Assembly (NCBI GenBank): GCA_043228905.1
Contig: JBHGNT010000010.1
Coordinates: forward strand, 7,378,001-7,442,000
DNA from: Azolla caroliniana
Taxonomy: Eukaryota; Plantae; Polypodiophyta
Direction of reading: 5' to 3'
Length of the DNA stretch: 64,000 nt
A program made the translations under genes and the position numbers. Numbering within the stretch: position 1 is the first letter of the stretch; the number at the start of each line of letters is the position of its first letter. Shown piece by piece: positions 18,499 through 63,488 of the stretch. The notes beneath the pieces were generated by a model that worked only from the letters and a program-made list of their open reading frames with translations, searched no databases and was not told the origin of the DNA.

Positions 18499-20786
18499 TA
18501 TTAGAGACTTGAACTAATGTAAGCATTAGATAAGGATAGAATATAGATCAAAATAGAAAGGAGAGAGAAAGAAGGGTGCCGATCCACCCGACCACCCCCG
18601 AGCAAAGGGATTGAGACAGGCTCGAGCCTCGATCGGCATCCCATACCACCGTCGTGGTGTCGAGTCATAGCTGGTGTTGGCGCGCTCACTACAAGAGTTG
18701 ACCCACCACAAGATAGAGTCTCGACGTAGTCAACAAGATGATCAAATGAGGGTATCTAGGCCTCTTATTTATAACGATACCCAAGGCCCCCAGGCAAGTT
18801 CACACTTGGCCTAATGGGTTATCTCAATCCCGATGATTAAAAGTAATCCTCCCCTTCTTTACACTCACCACGGGATATTATATGGTCATGCCCGTAACAT
18901 ACTCCCCCTCTTTAAAACATTGCACTCTTGCAATGGAAAGTTAGGGAAGTTAGTTATGAGAGTATTTTTACGTTCCCATGTGGCATCTTTTATTGATTTA
19001 TCCATCCATTTTATTTTAAATTCTCGGATTTCTTTAGTACGTAATTTTTTTGTTTTAACATCGAGAATTCTTTCTAGTACATGTGGTTTAGAGGATAATT
19101 CTTCAGAAGTAACCAGAGTTTTAGTTGTAACTGTATTGTCGCCAGAACCTAGAAGTTCTTTTAGACGAGTCACATGAAAAATTGGATGAATTTCAATGCC
19201 ATCGGGAAGAGCGAGACAATAGGCTGATGACCCAATGCGTTTGAGGACTATAAAAGGTCCACAAAACCGTGGGGCTAACTTAGCGCACTTACCCTTAGAC
19301 AATGTCTTAGAATTGTGAGGTACACGTAAAAATACCTTCTGTGCAGGGTTGAATACACGAGGTTGCCTATGATGATCGACATAAAAACGTGCTCTATCTT
19401 GAGATGTTTTTATATTATCTCGTGCAATATGCAACATATCTTGCATATCCGAAGGAAGTTTTGCGTACTTCACAACTCATCATGATGTATATTAACATCA
19501 ATCGGGGGTCGTGGCTAAAAACCATACATCAACATAAAAGGACGTATGCTTGGAGCTGTTATAAGCAAGTTACTCCAAAATTGGGAGATAACATTCCCAT
19601 TTTGTTTGTTTTGCACCAACGTATGCTCGAAACATGTCCTCAATAATTTGATTTACTCGTTTTGTCTGTCCATCGGATTGAGGATGATCCGTGGAGCTCA
19701 TGCTCAACGTAGTTTCTAACTTCTTAAAGACTTGCGTCCATAAGTCACTAGTAGATTTTGGATCTCGATCACTCACGATATCCATCAGTAACCCATAAAA
19801 AAGAAATAACTCGTCAATGAGTTGGTAAGCCAATTCAAGAGCTGTTACTGTGGTTTTAGTAGCAATAAACCTGGCCATTTTAGTTAGTCTATCAACCACA
19901 ACCCAGATTGCATCATGGCCTTTTTGGGTGCGAGGAAGGCTAACAATAAAATCCATGGATATACTTTCCCACTTATTATGTGGAATGTCCAAGGGATGTA
20001 AAAGTTTGGCGGCTTTAAGTCACTCGGCTTTGTTAACCTGACATTGGTGACATTTAGTCACATAACTATGTATGTCAGGGCATATCTTAGGCCAATAGAA
20101 TTGAGTGGAGATGAGAACGAGTGTACGATGTATTCTAGGGTGCCCTGTTGAGGGTGCATCATGGCATTCAAACAGAATTCTCTTCTTTACCTCAGGCAGA
20201 TCTGGAACACAAACCTTCCCATTACGGTAGAGCAGACCGTTAGCAATGTGGAAGTATTCCTTCGAGGATGTTGTGGTGTCTGTTCCAGACTCTACTCTTG
20301 CCCAGTATTTTGCGAAATAACTATCATCAGGATACTTTCCTCGAAGGTGATCATAAAGATCTGATGTTATTTTAGTAAAGCTAAGCATGTTAAATTCACA
20401 AATGTGACTTAGTGCATCAAAACCACAGTGTTCATGGAACCTTTACGTTATCGTATGGAAAAATCAAAGTCTTAGATGAGATCAACCCATCGTGCCTTAC
20501 GACCTTTCAGGTCTTGTTGGTCACAAAAATATTTCAAGCACTCATGGTCCGTAGTTACCCCAAAGTGATTTCCATAAAGATAATGGCACCATGTTTTGAA
20601 CGTATGTATAACTGCGAATAAATCCTTTTCTTGAACGGTATACCGACATTGAGCATAATCAAGTTTCTTACTCTCGAATGCTATTGGTTTACCATCTTGA
20701 TATAAGACAACACCTATAGCATAATCGCTTGCTTCGGTTTCAACCTCAAAAGGTTTTGAAGGATCAGGTAAAAGAAGTGAAGGAGC
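18499..20786 (-). mobile_element. 3' part of chromovirus copy D0 (RNase H, integrase, chromodomain, PPT, LTR 18499-18899)
   Basis: FEVETEASDYAIG, WESISMDFI, KLAPRFCGPF, ILDVKT...FKIKW...DATWE; PPT AGAGGGGGAGTA then TGTTACGGG. Confidence 0.92.
18886..19473 (-). pseudogene. integrase C-terminus with GPY/F motif and chromodomain
   Basis: RFCGPF, HPIFHVTRLK and chromodomain KW...ATWE. Confidence 0.88.
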
Positions 20787-21561
20787 TAGGTAAAATAAAA
20801 TGGATGGATAAATCAATAAAAGAGGCCACATGGGAACATGAAAGTACTCTCAGAACTAACTTCCCTAACTTTCCATTGCAAGAGTGCAATGTTTTAAAGA
20901 GGGGGGGAGTATGTTACGGGCATGACCATATAATATCCCGTGGTGAGAATTTACCGTAGTATTCTATACACGTGGATAAGTGTGACGGTTAAACGAGAGT
21001 GTAAAGAAGGGGAGGATTACTTTTAAATCCTCGGGATTGAGACAATCCATTAGGCCAAGTGTAAAATTGCCTGGGGGCCTTGGGTATCGCTATAAATAAG
21101 AGGCCTAGTTACTCTCATTTCATTATCTTGTTGATTAGGTTGAGACTCTGTCTTGTGGTGGATCAACTCTTGTAGCGAGCGAGCGAGCACCAGGTACGAC
21201 TCGACGCCACGGCGGTGGTATGGGACGCCAATCGAGGCTCGAGTCCGTCTTGATCACTTCGCTCGGGGGTGGTAGGGTGGATCAACACCCTTCTTTCTCT
21301 CTCTCCTTTCTTTCTATCTACCTAGATCTATCCTTATCTAATGCTTACTTTAGTACATGTCTCTGATATTTGGTATCCGAGCCTATGTACTAGTCTTTCT
21401 TTTGTTGGTCTTATCTTCTCGATGGATGGCTATTGATCGTTGTGCGGTTGGCCTTCATGCAGACAAGGATCAATAAGGAACTTTGGTAATCTTTCTTGTT
21501 ATTTTCATTAATTAAATTATGTTGTAGTGGTATTTAATTGGTTATCTAAAACGTTTACATA

Positions 21562-25747: not shown

Positions 25748-26684
25748 ATGAGGTATCTAAGCAATTCAAGGACTATTTATGAATGTGTTATATACGTTAT
25801 AATACAATCTCCAAGGGGTGCACCAGTTCTCTTGGTTAAAAAGAAAGAGGGCACATGGCGTATGTGTATTAATTACCGATGCTTCAATAAAGTGACGATC
25901 AAGAATTTGTATCGATTGCCCCGGGCTGACGATCTAATTGACCGTCTCCAGGGAGCTCGGTATTTTACGAAACTTGATCTCTGTACTGGCTACCATCAAA
26001 TTCATATAAGTGAGGACAATGTTCCTAAAACGGCATTTCGTACGTGCTATGGCCATTATGAGTTTTTGGTTATGCCTTTTGGTTTGACCAATGCTTTGGC
26101 TACATTTCAATAAGAAATGAATGACATTTTACAAGAACAACTTGGAAAATTTGTCGTTATTTTCTTGGATGATATTTTAGTTTATACTCATACATTACAA
26201 GAACATACTAAACATGTCCGCTTTGTTTTAGAAACATTGCGTGACAAACAATTTTACACGAAGATCTCAAAATGTGAGTTCTTCAAGAAATCAATTAACC
26301 GAACGAGTTGAAATTGATCCTTCTCGCATCGAGAAAATCAAGCTTTGGCCCACTCTTCGGAATATTCGAGAAGTTCGATCATTCCTTGGTTTTGTCGGGT
26401 TTTTGCGAAAATCCCTTCGTAATTACTCCCAATTGACGACGCCATTTACTGATCTTTTAAAAGGTCAAACGCGTAAGTCTACAAAACCTATTGTGTGGAA
26501 TGCTACACTAGACCTTGCCTTTATGGAACTCAAGGACCTGGTATGCAAGGCTCCTTCACTTCTTTTACCCGATACTTCAAAACCTTTTGAGGTTGAAACC
26601 GATGCAAGCGATTATGCTATAGGTGTTGTCTTATATCAAGATGGTAAACCAATAGCATTCGAGAATAAGAAACTTGATTCTGCT
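25748..26684 (+). pseudogene. chromovirus RT + RNase H start (element D)
   Basis: [40 protein letters not shown]. Confidence 0.9.
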
Positions 26685-26760
26685 TGTTTACGGGTGGGGG
26701 TACTCGGACTCGGCGTTTGCTAATTTCCTAATTTTACATTTCTGTCCTCTGGGCAACACC

Positions 26761-26776
26761 TGGCACGCCCGTGGGA
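26761..26776 (+). promoter_or_regulatory. primer-binding site, tRNA-Arg type (TGGCACGCCCGTGGGA)
   Basis: Lies 2 nt after the left LTR end. Matches the recalled complement of the plant tRNA-Arg(UCU) 3' end with a 1-nt gap. Confidence 0.75.
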
Positions 26777-27018
26777 CAGGACCTTGTCCGTCGGACCCAC
26801 GGCTTACAAAATACTAACAATATTACAAAAATTGCCTTTTAGGGGTGATCCTCGTTTGATTCCTCCTTTAAGATGTCGAGGATGCTTTCGGGGTCCGGGG
26901 TGGTGGTAGGGTGGTCTGGTTGGACTGTCGGTGCGGGGGGTTGAGTTTGGTTCGGGGGTGGCATATCTTCTCGGACGTCCGCCTCAGGTGCGACCGATTC
27001 TTCTGGTGGGGGTGGGGG

Positions 27019-30000
27019 TTAGTGGGCGCTGACCTCTACTTCGACAGGCTCTGGTACCGTGTGGGCGTCCATGGGATGTCTGTTGGCCGGGGCAAGTTCC
27101 TCCTGTGCCGTGTCCGTGATCTCCTTGCTGGGAGGTTCTTCTTTCTGCTCTGTGGCCGTTGGAGGGCTGGTGGGGATGGCTGCGAGTCGTTGTCGTTCGA
27201 AGGCTTCTGCTTCCAGGCGAAACAACATCTGACCGTCATTGAAGTCCTCCATTATTTGCTCGATTGCCGCGGTGTGAGATTTTGCCAAGGACTTGTAATC
27301 CTCGGTTAAATCTGCACGCAGGTTTTGAATGCTGGCTTCGTCCATTTTGTAGAAGCCGCAGCCCTCCTTCCGTCGGTTCTCGGCGTCGGCGCTTAAAATA
27401 TGCAATTCGGCAGCTTGGGCTGCCCATTCGTCTCCTGCGCGACCTAATGTTTCCTCGACCTTTTTGGTAAGGTGCTGGCGCTGTTTCTCGATCAGTATTC
27501 GGATGCGTGTCTCATCCATGCCGGGCTATGCTCAGATGGCTGCTAATTCCTGTTTTAAGCCGTCGACCTCGGCCTGAATCTTCTGTGTTCTTAACTCATA
27601 GATGGCCTGAGTGTTCTTTGCATCCGCGGTTACGAGCTGGAGAGCCTACTCGTAACGCTTGGTGAGTTTTCGGTGGCCTGCTCCCGTTCTTTCTGACACA
27701 TGGCCCGGATTTGTTCCCGTTCGACAATTCTCTCTTCTTGTAGGGAGAAGTAGGAATCCGATAAGGCGTCTTTTTGCTTTGAAAGTAGCTTGCATTTGAT
27801 GAAAAACTCGTCAGCCATCTCTTTAAGGGTTGTACGCTGACTCTGCAGCTCGGCATTCTCCGGGTTCATCCTCTCCTCCTGTTGGCGATTTCTTTCCTCC
27901 TGCCGCTGGTTCCAGTCTTTTTCATTGTCAAGCGCGGCCTGTAGGTCTAGAACCTCCTTCTCTTTCTTCACCACTGTGGCTGCGTATTCCTCCACCTTGC
28001 TTTTGAGTTCGGCTTCCTTGCCTGCGGATTGCGCTTGTACCCAGCCCAGTGCTTCGTTCTGCTCGTGTATCCTTTGGTCGGCCTGGGCTCTTATCTCGGC
28101 CATCTGCTTGGAAGCTTCTTCTTTTAGGCGAGCCATCGCCTCTTGATGCCGTTGTTCGTGTCTCTCGGTTCTCCGTTGTTCTTCTTTAAGCTCCGCACGG
28201 TAATCCCGGAGCGGGGGTTCTGTCTGAGTTGCCACCTCCTATGGCGCACGAGGTGGGGATATCTCGGTCTGCTCCATGGGCGTGGCCGCCTCGGTTGTTG
28301 TGCAGGCATCGACCATTTGTAACGAGTCCGTTTGTGTACTGGCCTGCACCTTCAGGATTGAGTCGGTGATGGTGCTTTCATCCATGATTGTTATGCGTGG
28401 AGGCGCTGGGAGGGCCTCGGTGGTCGTTACCGGAAGGCTCGGGAGTTGTTGTTCCGGCCGGTTTTGCTCCCAGGTTGCCAGCTTCTGGTTCACAGCGTGC
28501 CATAGTTTTGTAGCCATCTTAGCCTGTTTTTGGGCTATTTTTATCTTTCGGGCCATATTTTTGGCTGCCCGCGTAGTGCGATCCAGGTCCCGATATGCCT
28601 CGATAAGGGCCGTGTTCAACTCGGGGACCTCCATGAGGAGAGTAGCCTATTTTGCCTGCTTCTTCCTCCCGATTTTTTGTAAAGCACTGTCCTCCTGGGG
28701 CTCAATTTCACCTATTAGCGTGCATTGAATCATTTTTGTTTCGGCATGCTCTTCCGCCATTCGAGCGACTGCCGCAACTTGGACTCTGGCGAGGAAGTCG
28801 ACCAACTCGAATGACGTACCGAGGCGTAGGAGCACACTAAATTCGTAAGCCTCCGCGGGGAGGTCCTTATACCCGAGGACTTCATTCTCCGAGATCTGTG
28901 TTGTCTGCCCGTGCTCGATCGTTCCCTAGTTAAGCGATGCCTCCGCAGGGGTGATGGCCAGGTTGCTCTATCTGACCACTAAGGCTTGCTCCTGTTGTGG
29001 CTCCTTCCGTTCTTCCGAGGACTCGCGGTTGAGTCGTCTTCTCTTGCTTGGCTGTGTTTGGGGTTCCGGGGCCGGTAGTGTCGTTTCCTCTACCTGCTTC
29101 CTTTTCTGGGGTCGTGGTGGTGCAACCTACTATGTGTTGGGGCGTGGGCTAGGTCCTGAGGACATTACCGAGGGGCGCGACGTTGGCTGTTGAATGGTGA
29201 CGTCATCGGCCGCGTTGTCTTCCGCGGCTACCTCCTCCTCCCATTCTTGGCAGGTCTCGGAAACTACCCTTTTTTGTTGGGGTTGGGCGGGTGGTGGTGC
29301 AGATGCGGTTTTTTGGTCGGCGGCAGGTGGTGAAGGCGATGTGGGCTCCTCCCATGCTTCGTGGCTGATGGCCACGAATTTCTCTCTCTGTCTTCGTGGT
29401 GGTGGTGGGAACGTGAGTGTGCGAGGGGAAGGAAGCGAAGAGGGTGGGTATAGAACCATCAAAAAGTGGGTAAGAACAGACAACATCTTCTTACCGGACT
29501 GAAATGAAGCTAAGGCGGCGCGGAGTCCCTCACTTGTGATGATTCCCCAATCGATTCTGTTTCTTTCATACGCGCTGATGATGATGGTTGCCTTGTTCTG
29601 CGGCATGCTCGTTGGGTTCGTATGCACAAACGCATACTCCATCAATATACGAGCAATCTCCCAGAAAGCTTTCTTGGGACCACCATACGTGCGATATGCC
29701 TTCCCTATGGCTGAGTACTCACCGAAGTATGCCTTCATCTTTGATGCCGGGGGTATGTCGACCTCATGGTCCCCTCCCCGTTGCAGGTCCAAAACAGCCC
29801 GAAGCACGTTGTTGGTGATGGCTTCGGGACTTATACGTTTAGCCACAGTTTGGGCATCTGGGTGCGTGGGGGCATCAATGATCTTTAGGTAACTGCCCAT
29901 TCCTCGTTCCTGGAGCCAGGCGCGGGTTTCTGTTGAGGCGGTAAGAGGCATGGTGGAGATGGAGGCGGGGTTGGACTGTGTGGAAGCGTGAAGCAAAGTG

Positions 30001-30251
30001 ATGAGGCGAGGGCGAGCCACAGGAGGAACAGCAGGAAGGGGAAGTCCAGCAGAGAGGTTATGAGAGCGAAAGAGGGCTTGAGAGCAAGAGCGCTTAGCGT
30101 GATGAGGGCGAGACGGGGTTTTTGATCTTGAGAGCGATGGAGATGGGGAACGATAATGGTCTGTGCTGCGTTTTGGAAACGGTTTTAGTAACTTATTCCT
30201 AGGGTTTTGTGCCTGAAGCGAATCCTGAAGATTCTGAGTCGTGGGTGCCAT
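27019..30251 (-). pseudogene. large accessory ORF of element F (Pro/Ser-rich N-part, globular segment, long coiled coil), broken by stops
   Basis: Track ORFs 29130-30251, 28647-28835, 28239-28634 and 27630-28235 share one frame; 27019-27519 follows after a frameshift. E/Q/K/R heptad-like composition. Confidence 0.7.
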
Positions 30252-30475
30252 AATAAGTGACTAGCACCACGTGTCTTGAAGGTGAGTGGGGTGCTTCTAG
30301 TGCTTTGCATGTGCTTTGCATGTGTGAACAGCTTAAATAGGTACTAACTGAGTGGTGGCGAGGGGTGCTCCTAAAATTGTGGCTGCCTAGGTGGGTGGTG
30401 TAGGTGTAGCTAATCAGTGGCCTAACTATGGTTAATCCTACCTACTACTACTTTTATTAATTTCAAGAAGGTTAT

Positions 30476-33400
30476 TCAGGGGGACACGTGGCGTCCTCCG
30501 TGGTGATCTCCCGAGTCTTGTTTGTGCCGTGTGGCTCGGTAAACGGGTTGGGTGTCGAAGTCGAAAACCATTGGCCCAGCTTTTGACCGTGTCGCCGGCG
30601 AGTGTGCCGAGCTGGAACATCCTGTTGAACTTGTCGATAATCCAGAATGGACCGGTCCACCGAATCTTAATTTTCCCGGCATTGACCCGAGTCGTGTTTG
30701 GAAAAGAAGAACTGGTTTGCCGATGGTGAGCTCCTTCTCCAGCCCATGTCGATGTCGATCCACGAAAGCCTTGCGTTGCCGTTCCCGTTGTTCGAGCTGG
30801 GCCATACTCTCTATCCTATCTTCCCCGAGTTCGAGGAGTTGTTCCAGCCGGTATTGCTCGGATTCGGCCTCGGGGAGCCGTGCTTTGACTTGAACTCGGA
30901 GGCTCGGGACTTGGAACTCGACGGGCATTACGGCTTCTAACCCGAACGACATTCGAAAGGGGGTCGATTGGATGCTTGTTTTGAAAGTCGTACGATACGT
31001 CCACAACGCGCTTTGGAGTTTATCATCCCAATCGGTCCTGTTTTCATTGATGATCTTCTTCAGTATGGTTTGGAGGATTTTATTGGTCGATTTGGCCAAG
31101 CCGTTTGCCTGCGGGTAGTATGGTGTGCTTTTCTTGTGCACCACCGCGTAGTGGTGTGTAAGCTCACGTATTATATGATTGATGAAGTGCCCACCTTGGT
31201 CACTAACGAGCTCGATTGGACATCCGTAATGGCACCAGAGGTGCTCGTACACAAATTTAGTCGTGGATGCCGCCGTGTTATCTTGGAGTGCCTTAGCCTC
31301 GACCCATTTGGTGCAGTAATCCATGGCAACGATAATATACCTATTCCCTGTTCGGGCCGCGGGTGGTTTGAAAGGGCCTACAAAATCCAAACCCCATTTT
31401 TGAAATGGGTCCAATGGAAGAATCGGCTGGTGTGGCATCCGTGACTGTTCCATTGGTTGCCCCAGACGTTGGCACAAATCGCACTGCCAACAAAACTCGT
31501 GAGCGTCTTTCTTCATTGTTGGCCACCATAATCCACTTTGCCAAAGTTTCCTTGCCGTGGAATCCCCGGCGTAGTGTCCCCTAGCTACTCCCTGGTGGGC
31601 TTCCTGAAGAACGGCGTTCTTCTCGAATTGCCGAATCGCTCGGCGCCATATGCCGTCCGAGCCTTTGTGGTAGAGAATGTCCGAGACGAGGCAAAAATTC
31701 CGGCTACGCACTGCTAGGCGTTTTCTCGTGTCAAGGGGGGTCATGTGCTCGGGAGGTACATCGGTAGTGAGAAAATGGGTCATCTCCGTGATCCATTCAT
31801 CTCCGTTATCGTCTGGTACCGTGGTCAGGTTAAATAGGCTGGCGTCCGGTAGCTCGTCGTACGTTGTTTTCGCCGGTTCTCCTGACTCAAGACGGCTCAA
31901 GTAGTCGGCGACGACATGTTGTACCCTGGGTCGATGCTGAATCTGAAAATCAAACTCTTGTAGTAGGAGCATCCACCGAGCCAACCGTCTGGTGAGGGCT
32001 TGTTTATTGACCAAATAAAGAAGGGCTGAGTGATCCACGTGAAAGGTAAATTTTCGGCCCAAGAGGTAATGCCGAAATTTATTGATGCTATAAATCATAC
32101 CGAGGGCCTCCCGCTCGGTGGTGGAGTAATTCTTTTCCGCGGTCGAGAGCCGTCGGCTTGCGTAGTACACGGGCCTATACCAATTCGGGGGTGTGCATTG
32201 CATCAGAGCACTTCCGATGGTGATGTCCGAAGCATCTACGAAGACATGAAACGGTTCGAACCAAACCGGAGACTGGACCACCGGGGCATGTGACAACATT
32301 CGTTTTAGGGTCTGATAGGCCATGTCCTCGATTGACGTCCATTGGAAAGGAAGGCGATGGACTGCCGCGTGTAAGGGTGTCGCGAAATCAGCCAAGTGTC
32401 GTATCATTCGGCTGTGCCACCGGATCTGTCCCAAAAAACGACTTAGTGCCTTAGCGTTCGAGGGTGCGGTGGCATTCAGGATTTCCTTTACTTTATCCGG
32501 GTCCATAGCGATGCCTTCTTGACTGACAATGTGGTCGAGAAGGTTGCCGCTGGTGACTAAGAACGCGCATTTCGCCGGGTTTAAACTCAATCGAGCTTGG
32601 CGACATCGGTCCAGGCAGAGTCGTAATTGGGTCATGTGTTCCCGTCGATGGCCATACACGGCGAAATCGTCGAGAAAGACTTGCATGAACGCCGGGATGT
32701 AGTCATGAAAGATTTCGGTGATGATGCGCTGGAACGTAGCCGGCGTCGTTTTTAAACCGAACATCATAACTTCTACTACAAAAACACCCCATTCCATGAC
32801 GAAAGCGGTTTTCTCCGGATCCTCCGGGTGCATTCTTATCTAGTTATAGCCGCTGAACCCGTCGAGGAAACTGTAGCATTTGTGGCCGGCGACCGTCTCG
32901 AGGACGCTATCCGTGAATGGTAGAGGGAAACCGTCGGTGACTGTTGCTGCGTTAAGCTTCCGATAGTCGACGCAGACGCGGATTTTTCCGTTCTTCTTTG
33001 GGACCACTACGATCGGGCTCAACCATGTAGCCCGTTTAATAGGGCGAATGAAGCCCACTCGGAGTAGTTTGTCAATTTCCTCTTTGACTTTAGCGGCGTA
33101 GTTCGGGTTCATCCTGTAACGCCTTTGCTGAACCGGCCGAGTCTCGGGTAAGATGTGAATTTGATGTTGGTAGTATTGAGGATCCAGCCCCTTCATATCG
33201 GTGTAAGACCAAGTGAAAACATCCTGGTAGTTGGTGAGTAATTTTACAAGGCATGCCCGTTCGCCGGTTGGTAGATTATTAGCAATTTGTACCGTACGGG
33301 GATTCTCATCCGAACCGAGGTTTATTGTTTCCAGGGTTGATGCTTTCACTCGTTGTGAAATGGCGAGTTCGCGTTCGAAAGCCTCCCGAGCATGACGTAG

Positions 33401-33559
33401 CTCGGCAACTGTGGTTGCATCGGGTTCATCCTGGGGTGGTGACTCCTCCGTGACTTCCTCGTCTTTAGATGGCTCGATGGTTGGTAAGGCATTGATTTCG
33501 AAGAGAGGGATGATCATGGGATGATCATCTAGGAAGTCATCGACCTCCTCATCGGCCAA
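30476..33559 (-). pseudogene. pol of element F: RT, RNase H, integrase (Athila-like)
   Basis: WLSPIVVVPKKNGKIRVCVDYRKLN, FLDDF, FHVFVDAS, NYSTTEREAL, FQKWGLDFVGP, YYPQANG; one stop near 32840. Confidence 0.93.
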
Positions 33560-33637
33560 CCCGTCGAGTATATGGACCCCTTCCGCGTATAACGGCGAAC
33601 TGTTGAGGGCGACGGGGACTCGTTCTTCAGTGATGAT

Positions 33638-34111
33638 TCAGACTTTTGTCTTCCCTCTTCGGAATGAGATCATGTTGCGTTGCCAATGTTGCTTGATATT
33701 CGTTGTACGCAACCATGGTCGACCTAGTAACATTGGGTAGGCGCCTTGTGTCTCCAGTCGTAACACGACGGCCGAGATCGTGAACATGTGGCCTCCGAGT
33801 GTGAAGTCGAGATGGCGGATTAAACCAATGGGGCGAACAGAGCGGGTGTCGGCCATCCGAAGCCAAAAGGGGCATAGTTCCCATTGATTCAGGCTGAGGT
33901 TGAGACACGTTGACTCACTAATAACGTTTACGCCGGATCCGCCGTCGATGATGCATCCGTGCAACTCTTGTCCCTTAATGATGATTTGCACGGCTGGGTT
34001 CTGAGAATCCATGAGTGGTGGACCGGTTCCTGCTTCGGTGAGGTGTACCGGTGGCGTCACGGGCTTAGTATTGGCCTGGAGTGCCGCTAGGGTGTCCCGA
34101 AATCTCGGCAT
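33638..34111 (-). pseudogene. aspartic protease of element F
   Basis: IIDGGSGVNVI and YPMLLGRPWL. Confidence 0.88.
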
Positions 34112-34207
34112 GAGTGGTAGCAGTTTATGTAGGGGCAGCGAGATGCGGGAGTTGGTAAGAACATCCCATAGCTGGTCGTCCTCCGACGACGTGGATGGTG
34201 CCGAGGT

Positions 34208-35725
34208 TTATGGTACTTCAATGGGCCCGTCCCTCATGTTAGTTTGCATGTGTATGGCATTATTTTTATTGTCCGTGTCGACCCATTCTTTTGCTGCCTG
34301 TCGTACGTCATCCTGGATTTGCCACTGACTAGTTTGCGCTTTACTCCGGGTAGTGACCGTTTGAACATCAGCCATGATATTGTTCATCGTGGGTGCCTTG
34401 CCACGGTTGGTTGTTGGACATTGCGTGGTGTAGTGGCCTGGTTGATTACATTTAAAACATGTCACGTTGGCCGAGCTGCTGGTGTCCGCTCAGTCTGTGT
34501 GTCGAAGCTGTTGTTGTTGATCCTCGGTCTCGTTTGGTGGTGGGTTGTTCCGAGGTGCGTTGGAGTTGCACTGGTCCTGTTGAGGAGCGTCTCGTCGGCG
34601 GTTGTGAGTAGGTCTTCTATTGTTGCGTGTGTTGCAGTTGCCGTTTCGCCGATCAATGCGTGAGTTTCTTCGATCATACCGATCATCGCGATCGTCATCG
34701 TATCGAGCATAATCGTCGTGTTGGTCATCACGATAATAATCACGGCGATTATCACGTTGGTAGTCGTCGTCTCGGCGCCATCGATCCGGGGATCGCGGTT
34801 GGTCGTTATCCTGGTTTCGGTAGATATATCGCTCGTCCTGCCGAGAGTATGTATTTCGTGGCTCGATTTGGCGGACCGGTGCCGCCATTGTGCGGTTCAA
34901 CATATTATATTCGCACTACTCGACCGTGTGAGCTCGAGACTGACAGATCGGACATTGTGGTTGGTGGGGACATTCGAGGGCCAGGTGCCCTGATCCTGAA
35001 CACACAATGCATTGGAGGGCTTGGCGAAAGCGATTGTCCTCTTGGGGAAGAGCATTTTGTAAGGATGTCATCGAGAATGTCGTGTCGTGATGGTTCCGAT
35101 CGAGGGCGAGAACGCGCGCTATGACTTGTTCGATAGTATAGTTGGCGAAATTTGTAAGTGTGAGAGTCGTTCATAGAGGCTCTCTTAAACTGGATAGGAA
35201 AGTGTCCGGTATATGTTGTGCCGAGACATCATCAGCCACTTGACTGTAGAGATCCTGGAACCGGATCGTGAACTGCGCGACCGTTTCATGCGGTTCCTGG
35301 CATATAGAGAAGAATTGCCCGAGCAGTTCCCGTTTAGGCACCTCGCGATGAAAAAGTTTAAGGAACTTTGTGCGCACGATTTGGAAAGTGGTGGCCTCTC
35401 CTATTTCGAGGCGAGAGTACCATCGTACGGCCGGTCCATCGAGGGAGAGTGTGAACTCGGCAATCTTCGAGGCATTGATTTCGGCCGGCGTGAGGCGGTG
35501 CGTGGAGTGGTTAGCCTGCCACGTGGATATGAAGGCACGGACGTGTGACTCTGCGTCTGGTCCGTCGGCATATTGTGGGTATGGGTACGACATGATGTCG
35601 TACTGTGGGTCTTCTAGTAGCACCGGAAAAGGGTTTAGTTCCGATTGATTGACCTCCGGAGGGCTCGACGGGGGTCCTGGTGGTGAATCAACTTGCGATC
35701 GAGTGTCCGGTGGCGAGGATTGCAC
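34208..35725 (-). pseudogene. gag of element F (fragmented)
   Basis: FTLSLDGPAVRWY, QEPHETVAQFTIRFQDL, R/D-rich linker, CFKCNQPGHYTTQC knuckle. Confidence 0.85.
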
Positions 35726-36370
35726 TGGACAAGCCTCCGATTGATCGGGAAAGGATTGGTCAGTGACCGCCGAGTCGGAAGTTCCTTCGACTAGCTCAGG
35801 GCGTCGGGCAGGTGGCCGAGACCTCGTGGTGCGAGAGGGCGCTGTAACGGCGGCTGGTGGTTACCTTCAACGAAGTTCGCTGTGCACTCACAGTTGTAAC
35901 TGGGCATGCCAAATTGTGTTACCCGTTCCTTTGGGTGAACACCTTCGATAGATCTGCGTCTATCTGTCTTCAAGGGTGTGGTACGTGAAGGCTCGTAACA
36001 GAGGCGTCGAGAGAGATACAGGGCTCAAAGAGAAAACACTAGCGAGGTTTTGATAGACGTGGCGGCGTGAAACTCATAGGTATGGATCAAAGCACAGACT
36101 CTTGCAGCAAAATAGGCACAAATAAGATATATTACTATGGCAAAAAAGATTACAGAACACGGCCTATGGCCGGTGACCTTACGAGTTTATCTAATTACGA
36201 ATGACTAAGCTAGTGCTTCCGCCTATAGTTTTCTTCTCCCTCCTCTAAGGTACTGCTCCTCGTTTAAATAACTTTTCCAATAATACACAACCGAGCCGAA
36301 GGTGGCCCGTGATACTCGGACTCGGCGTTTGCTAATTTCCTAAGTTTACATTTTTGTCCTCTAGACAACA

Positions 36371-37281
36371 CTGCTCAATGTCGGTATACCGTTCAAGAAA
36401 AGGAATTATTTGCAGTTATACATGCGCTCAAAACATGGCGCCATTATCTTTATGGAAATCGCTTGTGGTAACTACGGACCACGAGTCCTTGAAATATTTT
36501 TGTGACCAACAAGACCTGAAAGGTCGTAAGGCACGCTTGTGGTAACTACGGACCACGAGTCCTTGAAATATTTTTGTGACCAACAAGACCTGAAAGGTCG
36601 TAAGGCACGATGGGTTGATCTCATCTAGGACTTTGATTTTTCCATACGATATCGTAAAGGTTCCATGAATACTGTCATTGATGCACTAAGTCGCATCCGT
36701 GAAGTTAACATGGTTAGCTTCACTGAAATAACATCAAATCTTTATGATCACCTTCGAGGAAAGTATCCTGATGACAGTTATTTTGTAAAATACTGGGCAA
36801 AAGTTGAGTCTGGAACAGACACCACCACATCCTCGAAGGAATACTTCCACATTGCTAACAGTCTGCTCTACCGTAATGGGAAGGTTTGTGTTCCAGATTT
36901 GCCTGAGCTCAAAAAGAGAATTCTTTTTGAATGCCATGATGCACCCTCAGCAGGGCACCCTAGAATACATCATACACTCGTTCTCATCTCCACTCAATTC
37001 TATTAGCCTAAGATGCGCCTTGACATACATAGCTATGTGACTAAATGTCACCAATGTCAGGTTAACAAAGCCGAGCAACTTAAAGCCGCAAGACTTTTAC
37101 ATCCCTTGGACATTCCCAACAATAAGTGAGAAAGTATATCCATGGATTTTATTGTTAGCCTTCCTCGCACCCAAAAAGGCCATGATGCCATCTAGGTTGT
37201 GGTTGATCGACTAACTAAAATGGCTAGATTTATTGCTACTGAAACCACGGTAACAACTCTTGAATTGGCTTACCAATTCAT
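36371..37281 (+). pseudogene. RNase H end and integrase N-part of chromovirus D, with a 74-bp tandem duplication at 36460-36607
   Basis: Nearly identical to the minus copy at about 19830-20650; ILFECHDAPSAGH. Confidence 0.88.
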
Positions 37282-37381
37282 NNNNNNNNNNNNNNNNNNN
37301 NNNNNNNNNNNNNNNNNNNNNNNNNNNNNNNNNNNNNNNNNNNNNNNNNNNNNNNNNNNNNNNNNNNNNNNNNNNNNNNNN
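37282..37381. other. assembly gap (100 N)
   Basis: Run of N; contiguity across it is unverified. Confidence 0.99.
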
Positions 37382-63257: not shown

Positions 63258-63329
63258 ATTCCATCGAAGGATTCGAACCTATACTTAAGGTTTGGAAGAC
63301 CTTTGTCCTATCCATTAGACGATGGACGC
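63258..63329 (-). tRNA. trnR: plastid-derived trnR-UCU copy; 3' acceptor strand disrupted, anticodon reads TCC
   Basis: GCGTCCATCGTCTAATGGATAGGACAAAGGTCTTCCAAACCTTAAGTATAGGTTCGAATCCT; lies downstream of trnG-UCC as in plastomes. Confidence 0.82.
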
Positions 63330-63488
63330 ACTTTTCTATCTAGTCGATAGCCAACTATCAAGAAGCTAGAGCAAGAGTACCAAATCGCGAACACACAAGA
63401 GTTTTTATTCGTTCGCGACACGGTTTAGAAACAATAAAGAAAAGCAAGATCATTTTGGATAACCCTTTCACCCTTGCGTTCTATTTTT

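Follow-up and report, generated by a model that had tools for sequence, protein, structure and literature searches.

Among retroviruses and long terminal repeat (LTR) retrotransposons, the priming of the second DNA strand by a polypurine tract (PPT) is treated as near-universal, as far as the available text of the sources goes (PMC6317226, PMC3185662). The stretch analysed here, 64,000 nt of an Azolla caroliniana contig (the window), carries at 26685-36370 an element that, to judge by its sequence, belongs to an Athila-like Ty3/gypsy family of high copy number and is decayed in this copy, and in which the PPT appears to be replaced by an inverted, extended tRNA-complementary site; the architecture is read from the letters, and from it we infer the mechanism. 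According to the accessible parts of the descriptions, the element resembles the Athila clade, which belongs to the OTA non-chromoviruses (Athila4, Calypso, FIDEL; Neumann et al. 2019, PMC6317226; PMC2844528), in its order of gag, protease (PR), reverse transcriptase (RT), RNase H (RH) and integrase (INT), in lacking both an archaeal RNase H (aRH) and a chromodomain, and in having a large sense extra open reading frame (ORF) after pol, a 5-bp target-site duplication (TSD) and a primer-binding site (PBS) several bases away from the LTR. Besides these similarities, there are differences in the same descriptions: the Athila PBS corresponds to tRNA-Asp and that of the element to tRNA-Arg(UCU), the LTR exceeds 1.2 kb in the group of FIDEL compared to 450-540 bp in the present family, and the latter has an inverted tRNA site instead of the Athila PPT, TTGGGG. 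This family, with a short tRNA site on one strand and a long one on the other, is called the two-site family below. Phygy and Selgy, from a moss and a spikemoss (PMC6317226), are likewise non-chromoviruses without aRH in the description by which they were compared, but they are short elements that contain little apart from the polyprotein, whereas the two-site element has a 3.4-kb extra ORF.

A literature search that covered few subscription papers returned no inverted PBS replacing a PPT, no tRNA-primed plus strand and no antisense gag-pol. In the primer activation signal of HIV and in the bipartite PBS of Ty3, a second block pairs with the T arm of the tRNA, with a hairpin between the blocks. 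Such extended contacts in HIV and in Ty1/Ty3 belong to the genomic RNA and to first-strand priming, whereas those of the two-site family lie on the opposite strand, at the PPT position. The self-priming elements Tf1 and Tcn1 also form a lineage with an unusual primer; however, in the available part of their description (PMC10085805), it is the primer of the first strand that is altered and the PPT is retained, while the two-site family replaces the PPT, and that part holds no precedent for tRNA plus-strand priming. Neither PBS motif of the family occurs in the supplementary text of PMC6317226 (five files, 17,418 characters), and the large element table outside it may hold relatives.

On the minus strand, the element starts with a 5′ LTR of 454 bp (35917..36370), bounded by TGTTG and TAACA and carrying TATA at 36263-36270, TGTAA at 36150-36154 and AATATA at 36128-36133. 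It continues with a 5-nt spacer, CAATT (35912..35916), a 13-nt PBS for tRNA-Arg(UCU) (35899..35911), a gag-PR-RT-RH-INT region (30534..35593) and the extra ORF, sense to pol (26839..30251). The layout of this coding strand is canonical, with the LTR and the short PBS on the minus strand together with gag-pol and the extra ORF. The sequence-only reading of this locus had correctly placed gag, RT, RH, INT and the extra ORF on the minus strand and a PBS-like TGGCACGCCCGTGGGAC on the plus strand next to the left repeat (at 26761, with 2 nt in between), and had rightly seen that the minus strand lacks a PPT at the left LTR. Its central claim, that the whole coding region is antisense to the LTR and PBS, has to be abandoned, as the LTR, a PBS and the genes lie on one strand and the plus-strand site is an additional one in the PPT position; the PBS that it missed beside the right LTR lies at 35911-35899 (minus strand), 5 nt past the true LTR end. 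The weak purine run GAGCCGAAGGTGG (36294-36306), which it had noted before the right LTR, is no PPT: it is part of the LTR, and most family contigs have TC in place of its AA. Annotation software that relies on a PPT, or on the best PBS for orientation, will lose two-site elements or turn them around, as happened in the sequence-only reading.

The inverted site occupies the place where the PPT belongs, starting with TGGCACGCCCGTGGGAC at 26761 on the plus strand, 2 nt past the left LTR. For comparison, 74 metagenome contigs were collected by an exact pattern for this site, which allowed a spacer of 1-3 nt, and the spacer (26759..26760, plus strand, in the window) was 2 nt in 74/74 loci. Block 1 (26761..26777, plus strand) is the complement of tRNA-Arg(UCU) nucleotides 59-76 with one base missing. 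It is followed by a 13-nt insert with a 4-bp hairpin (26778..26790, plus strand) that covaries in the alignment of loci, and then by block 2 (26791..26800, plus strand), the complement of tRNA nucleotides 49-58 in the T-stem and T-loop. The predicted pairing, with the last 28 nt of the tRNA, thus comprises 17 bp, the looped-out 13-nt hairpin and 10 bp. Both block 2 and the hairpin lay outside the search pattern. In block 2, 9-10 of the 10 pairs were kept in 48/70 loci, compared to 0/763 control offsets. The hairpin alignment combined the window with 53 of the 74 loci (54 rows in all, 21 duplicate or too-short rows being dropped), with 91% of cells paired and 36 double changes, a level reached by none of 500 shuffles. 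A scan of the inverted site with Rfam gave no family and one chance snoRNA hit.

One contig, L001, contains a complete tRNA-Arg(UCU) at 1190-1265 (ARAGORN; Rfam 71 bits), which pairs at 13/13 positions with the intact short PBS and over 27-29 nt with the inverted site; 14 bacterial tRNA-Arg genes share the 3′ part of this tRNA. Computed with RNA parameters, the predicted free-energy differences of binding (ddG) were -31 to -37 kcal/mol for the inverted site, -21 for the intact short PBS and -13 for the short PBS of the window copy.

Family protein matches downstream of the inverted site were found in 53 of the 74 contigs, and the nearest match was antisense in 53/53 (end of the extra ORF in 51, its start in one and pol in one), the other 21 having no match. 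In three contigs measured, pol was about 69-89% identical to the window in nucleotides, and L041 and L072 each contain both tRNA sites in a single contig, with the extra ORF (on the side of the inverted site) and gag-pol between them. When a PPT was defined as a 13-nt stretch with 12 or more purines no farther than 60 nt from the LTR, it was present in 0/69 loci, a test whose last 15-24 nt were fixed by the search pattern. The suspicion of a lineage trait in the sequence-only reading is borne out by the common orientation, and the two-site layout is, as far as these comparisons go, inherited across the lineage, its subfamilies and a second LTR family. As the contigs were selected by a pattern and are related, the counts show an inherited layout and not its commonness. 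Separately, L064 and L029 have gag or protease matches on the plus strand upstream of the LTR, in flanking or rearranged DNA.

The insertion itself, 9,686 bp long, interrupts another Ty3/gypsy element in its RNase H region, and the description of a clean insertion was confirmed: the termini are TG...CA, the TSD CTGCT stands on both flanks (26680..26684 and 36371..36375, no strand), a 58-bp direct repeat with four differences is present at both ends, and the empty site is preserved in a paralogous host copy at about 20550-20790. A private inversion or misassembly of the locus, which had been left as an option, might be suspected from the damaged left LTR and from a perfect 74-bp tandem duplication only 90 bp from the right end; it is almost certainly wrong, as the TSD and empty site are intact and 53/53 relatives share the orientation. 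That duplication (36460-36607) belongs to the host element and may be a recent duplication or an assembly slip. The second copy of the interrupted host element lies at 18499-20786 on the minus strand and is 93-96% identical.

The coding-strand PBS of the window copy reads TGGCATGCCCAGT, followed by gag, and differs from the perfect tRNA-Arg complement by two transitions. Contigs from four public runs (three organism labels) were compared with this copy, and the family covers its entire interior in them. Their majority letters at 35906 and 35901 give the perfect complement, with depths for the other letters of 45333/50994 and 38131/40297, respectively, in run X1, and of 257545/259610 and 194141/194773 in run X13. 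Among the 74 contigs, 20 have a short PBS after the LTR on the coding strand; this count leaves out L047, whose site belongs to a different element and lies on the opposite strand, and two spacerless rows, which were discarded as chance. The short PBS is TGGCACGCCCGGT after CAATT in 10 natural contigs and TGGCGACCAC after the 7-nt spacer CAGTTTT in eight (L006, L010, L028, L043, L054, L058, L064 and L070), the remaining two being L049 and L069. The TGGCGACCAC type, which we take to correspond to another tRNA-Arg, occurs with an unchanged inverted site. In the window, the PBS is followed by a hairpin and CGAAC, the complement of the tRNA T-loop (35875..35898, minus strand), and a hairpin with (C/T)GAAC follows in 17/20 short sites, a design that resembles the inverted site.

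The LTR signals point to the coding strand as the genome: in one 80-nt interval of the LTR, TATA was found in 32/35 on the coding strand compared to 15/35 on the opposite strand, and TGTAA occurred in 35/35 LTRs compared to 9/35. A sense genome with a tRNA-primed plus strand, so that host tRNA would prime both DNA strands, is the most likely reading, somewhat more probable than not. In such a cycle, the LTR would drive a coding-strand RNA serving as both mRNA and genome, and one tRNA at the short PBS would prime the first-strand DNA. After the first jump, RT would reach U3 and the inverted site and copy them as single-stranded DNA, onto which a second tRNA-Arg would open its acceptor and T arms, forming a three-way junction (17 bp, hairpin and 10-12 bp), with its CCA end priming the plus strand 2 nt before the TG of the LTR. 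The primer would then be removed by RNase H, and the two nucleotides trimmed by the integrase. More broadly, it is likely that a whole lineage of plant LTR retrotransposons, comprising two or more LTR families together with non-autonomous partners, lacks a PPT and has host tRNA priming both strands, the second on single-stranded DNA; in its boldest form, the system would be symmetric, with the RNA of either strand as genome. If this is true, RT and RNase H would be able to start a plus strand from a tRNA on DNA, and two replication steps would be tied to one host tRNA, which would make the family a natural system for the study of primer choice.

Several points weigh against the tRNA-primed plus strand. 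A tRNA-DNA hybrid is a substrate of RNase H, so the survival of the primer is unexplained. The inverted site is the predicted stronger tRNA binder and has the textbook PBS spacing of 2 nt, which suits a genome of the opposite polarity. Besides the pattern-fixed part of the PPT test, all 74 contigs come from one assembly series, where related rows inflate every count, and as the loci were picked by the exact site pattern, the frequency of relatives without the site or with a PPT is unreadable. In the hairpin, the measure of pairs with a double change is not above shuffles (407/500), and pair 26-37 on the antisense strand has seven A-C mismatches compared to one G-T, which would be wobble pairs if read on the coding strand.

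The opposite polarity, an antisense or two-way genome, had been raised by the sequence-only reading as a separate packaged genome. The RNA of the non-coding strand would be packaged, with priming at the long site; second-strand synthesis would begin from the short site, and the genes would be expressed from separate coding-strand RNAs. In the two-way version, the RNA of either strand could be copied. The better predicted binding of the long site speaks for it, as do the end of block 1 at tRNA nucleotide 59, like a classical 18-nt PBS, and the invariant 2-nt spacer (74/74). Nevertheless, it is rather unlikely, since the LTR signals point in the coding direction, the second family included, and the short PBS has Athila-type spacing: in the available text on FIDEL, the LTR ends at 1531 and the PBS lies at 1541 (PMC2844528), which the 5-7-nt spacer of the short PBS fits. 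As stated in the accessible part of PMC3185662, a first-strand PBS is recopied from the tRNA in each cycle. The persistent one-base bulge of the long site therefore disfavours it as a first-strand PBS, because recopying should erase the bulge. The missing base is also maintained in three sites outside the search pattern (L022, L049 and L061), and no insertion was seen at this position among the 12 best-supported of 21 indels.

In L001, the tRNA with its CCA abuts the 3′ portion of the extra ORF, the junction falling precisely at the limit of homology. Lying on first-strand polarity, it is possibly a captured primer, which would give weak support to the sense genome; against this, it may have been retroposed, or it may be a chimera of the assembly, the contig having 2x coverage and ending 1 nt past the CCA. 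In total, tRNA genes or decayed copies lie near family LTRs in 4/74 contigs: L001, L017 (1062-1137 and 2756-2828), L068 (131-203) and the end of L067. The last is decayed and has no precise junction, so it is not counted as support.

Another way to avoid the RNase H problem of the tRNA-primed plus strand is a primer that only imitates a tRNA. The copy of the tRNA 3′ end in the genomic RNA, ending in CCA, would survive RNase H and prime the plus strand as a non-purine PPT, with no second tRNA. The coding strand indeed reads T-stem, T-loop, acceptor 3′ strand and CCA, and the A-C mismatches at the one hairpin pair become G-U on it. On the coding strand, a U-rich 3′ untranslated stretch (26803..26835, minus strand) immediately precedes the inverted site, with an A-run or TACAAA there in 48/69 loci; it is similar to the U-box before PPTs in the available description (PMC10085805). 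Still, such a mimic is unlikely. The 13-nt T-loop hairpin and the missing base would ruin a mimic but harm a binding site little, and the commonest change in block 2, A to G (42/70 loci), keeps a G-U pair with the tRNA while altering an invariant base that would break the T-loop of a mimic. In addition, the short PBS shares the design of site, hairpin and GAAC (17/20), which points to tRNA binding.

A role apart from priming would make the inverted site a relic of an old reverse-transcription accident, or a site whose only function is to bind tRNA in packaging or to pair RNA; the plus strand would then begin at an unrecognized site. On the RNA, the two sites can pair over 11 bp in the main subfamily (-24.9 kcal/mol), but this pairing is lost in the TGGCGACCAC subfamily (-8.9 kcal/mol), and as the short PBS was swapped there and the inverted site kept, the mutual pairing of the sites is dispensable. 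Moreover, the fixed 2-nt register to the TG of the LTR, the covariation, the conservation across subfamilies and the second LTR family, and the lack of a PPT available to define the LTR start make such a role very unlikely. Cis self-priming between the two sites was likewise rejected as a general mechanism, given the loss of pairing in the TGGCGACCAC subfamily. In three of the four readings (the tRNA-primed plus strand, the mimic, the antisense genome and the non-priming role), the PPT is gone and tRNA-derived sequence stands in its place.

Regarding the LTRs, the view that they are tiny does not hold: next to the 454 bp of the right LTR, a full LTR of 445-542 bp is present in 34 of the 74 contigs, and the shortening of the left one to 74 bp (3′ LTR, 26685..26758, minus strand) is, from the comparison of copies, private to the window copy and not a family trait. 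The LTR boundaries are supported by public-run contigs that begin exactly at 35917 in three of four runs and by 21 distinct flanks starting directly after the LTR end TAACA. In the damaged LTR, 26758-26701 correspond to the first 58 bp of the family LTR (direct repeat 26701-26758/36313-36370), and 26700-26685 are 16 bp that agree at 15/16 bases with the end of the LTR in a second two-site family (L049, oriented 1823-2150). In L049, this second LTR is likewise bordered by short and long tRNA-Arg sites. The chimeric left LTR probably arose during reverse transcription by a switch of template to a sister family packaged alongside, the simplest reading because the TSD is intact; however, a standard intramolecular second jump would put the short form at both ends, which this account leaves unexplained. 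The 16-bp match also hints at co-packaging of families. Both repeats, 36313-36370 and 26701-26758, are without a segment of about 38 bp carried by other family copies, so its loss is older than the last replication.

The polyprotein region of the window copy has six stops and a frameshift near 30670, and the extra ORF has 10 stops and a frameshift near 27670. The domain order gag-PR-RT-RH-INT was established by Pfam, except for the protease, which had no Pfam match and was recognized by eye from its DGGSG motif; no aRH or chromodomain was matched by Pfam in the 1708-aa polyprotein of L041. The extra ORF encodes about 1170 aa in relatives (3.4 kb); its N-terminal domain, about 200 aa long, is conserved, and its tail is an acidic coiled coil. 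It matched no Pfam family, and a search gave 118 unnamed relatives among shorter proteins, none with a function. Its position and strand fit the Athila ORF1/env-like ORF, with Atlas giving PF20167 at 0.85 and PF03078 at 0.83, both below 0.9. Two TATA-like boxes had been proposed as upstream of gag and of this ORF, and both are present (36263-36270 and 30333-30340, minus strand), but the one on the gag side is the LTR's own promoter and not an internal one. The other, also found in L041, is likely an internal promoter for the extra ORF, judging by its position.

The Ty3/gypsy domain order, direct TG...CA LTRs with a short TSD and a coding-strand PBS are all present, and only the PPT before the 3′ LTR is missing, the inverted tRNA site lying there instead. 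The element does not conform to Tat/Ogre/Retand (aRH), to chromoviruses (chromodomain) or to Phygy/Selgy (short, no extra ORF), and it is not filed as Athila because its PBS is not of the tRNA-Asp type and it lacks the PPT. Among named proteins, those of liverworts and a conifer come closest, with about 38-46% identity, which by itself suggests a land-plant host, probably a non-flowering one; a search of viral contigs for relatives gave no match. In a quick RT-RH tree (65 rows, backbone open, references other than REXdb), the two-site contigs form one clade (SH-aLRT 99), apart from the angiosperm rows and inside a wider non-chromovirus group of liverworts and angiosperms, distant from chromoviruses and from the row bearing aRH. 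The Vitis, Brassica and Striga rows are presumably Athila, judging by a motif.

In L069 (205-3086), a long site, 2.9 kb without pol matches, a short PBS and an LTR follow one another, and from this arrangement it looks like a non-autonomous two-site partner. Together with L007, L017 and L036, it forms a family sharing the inverted site with no pol match. Elsewhere in the window, there are a scaffold gap of 100 N at 37282-37381 and a tRNA-Gly(TCC) gene at 63259-63330, and the remainder consists of nested copia and gypsy remains.

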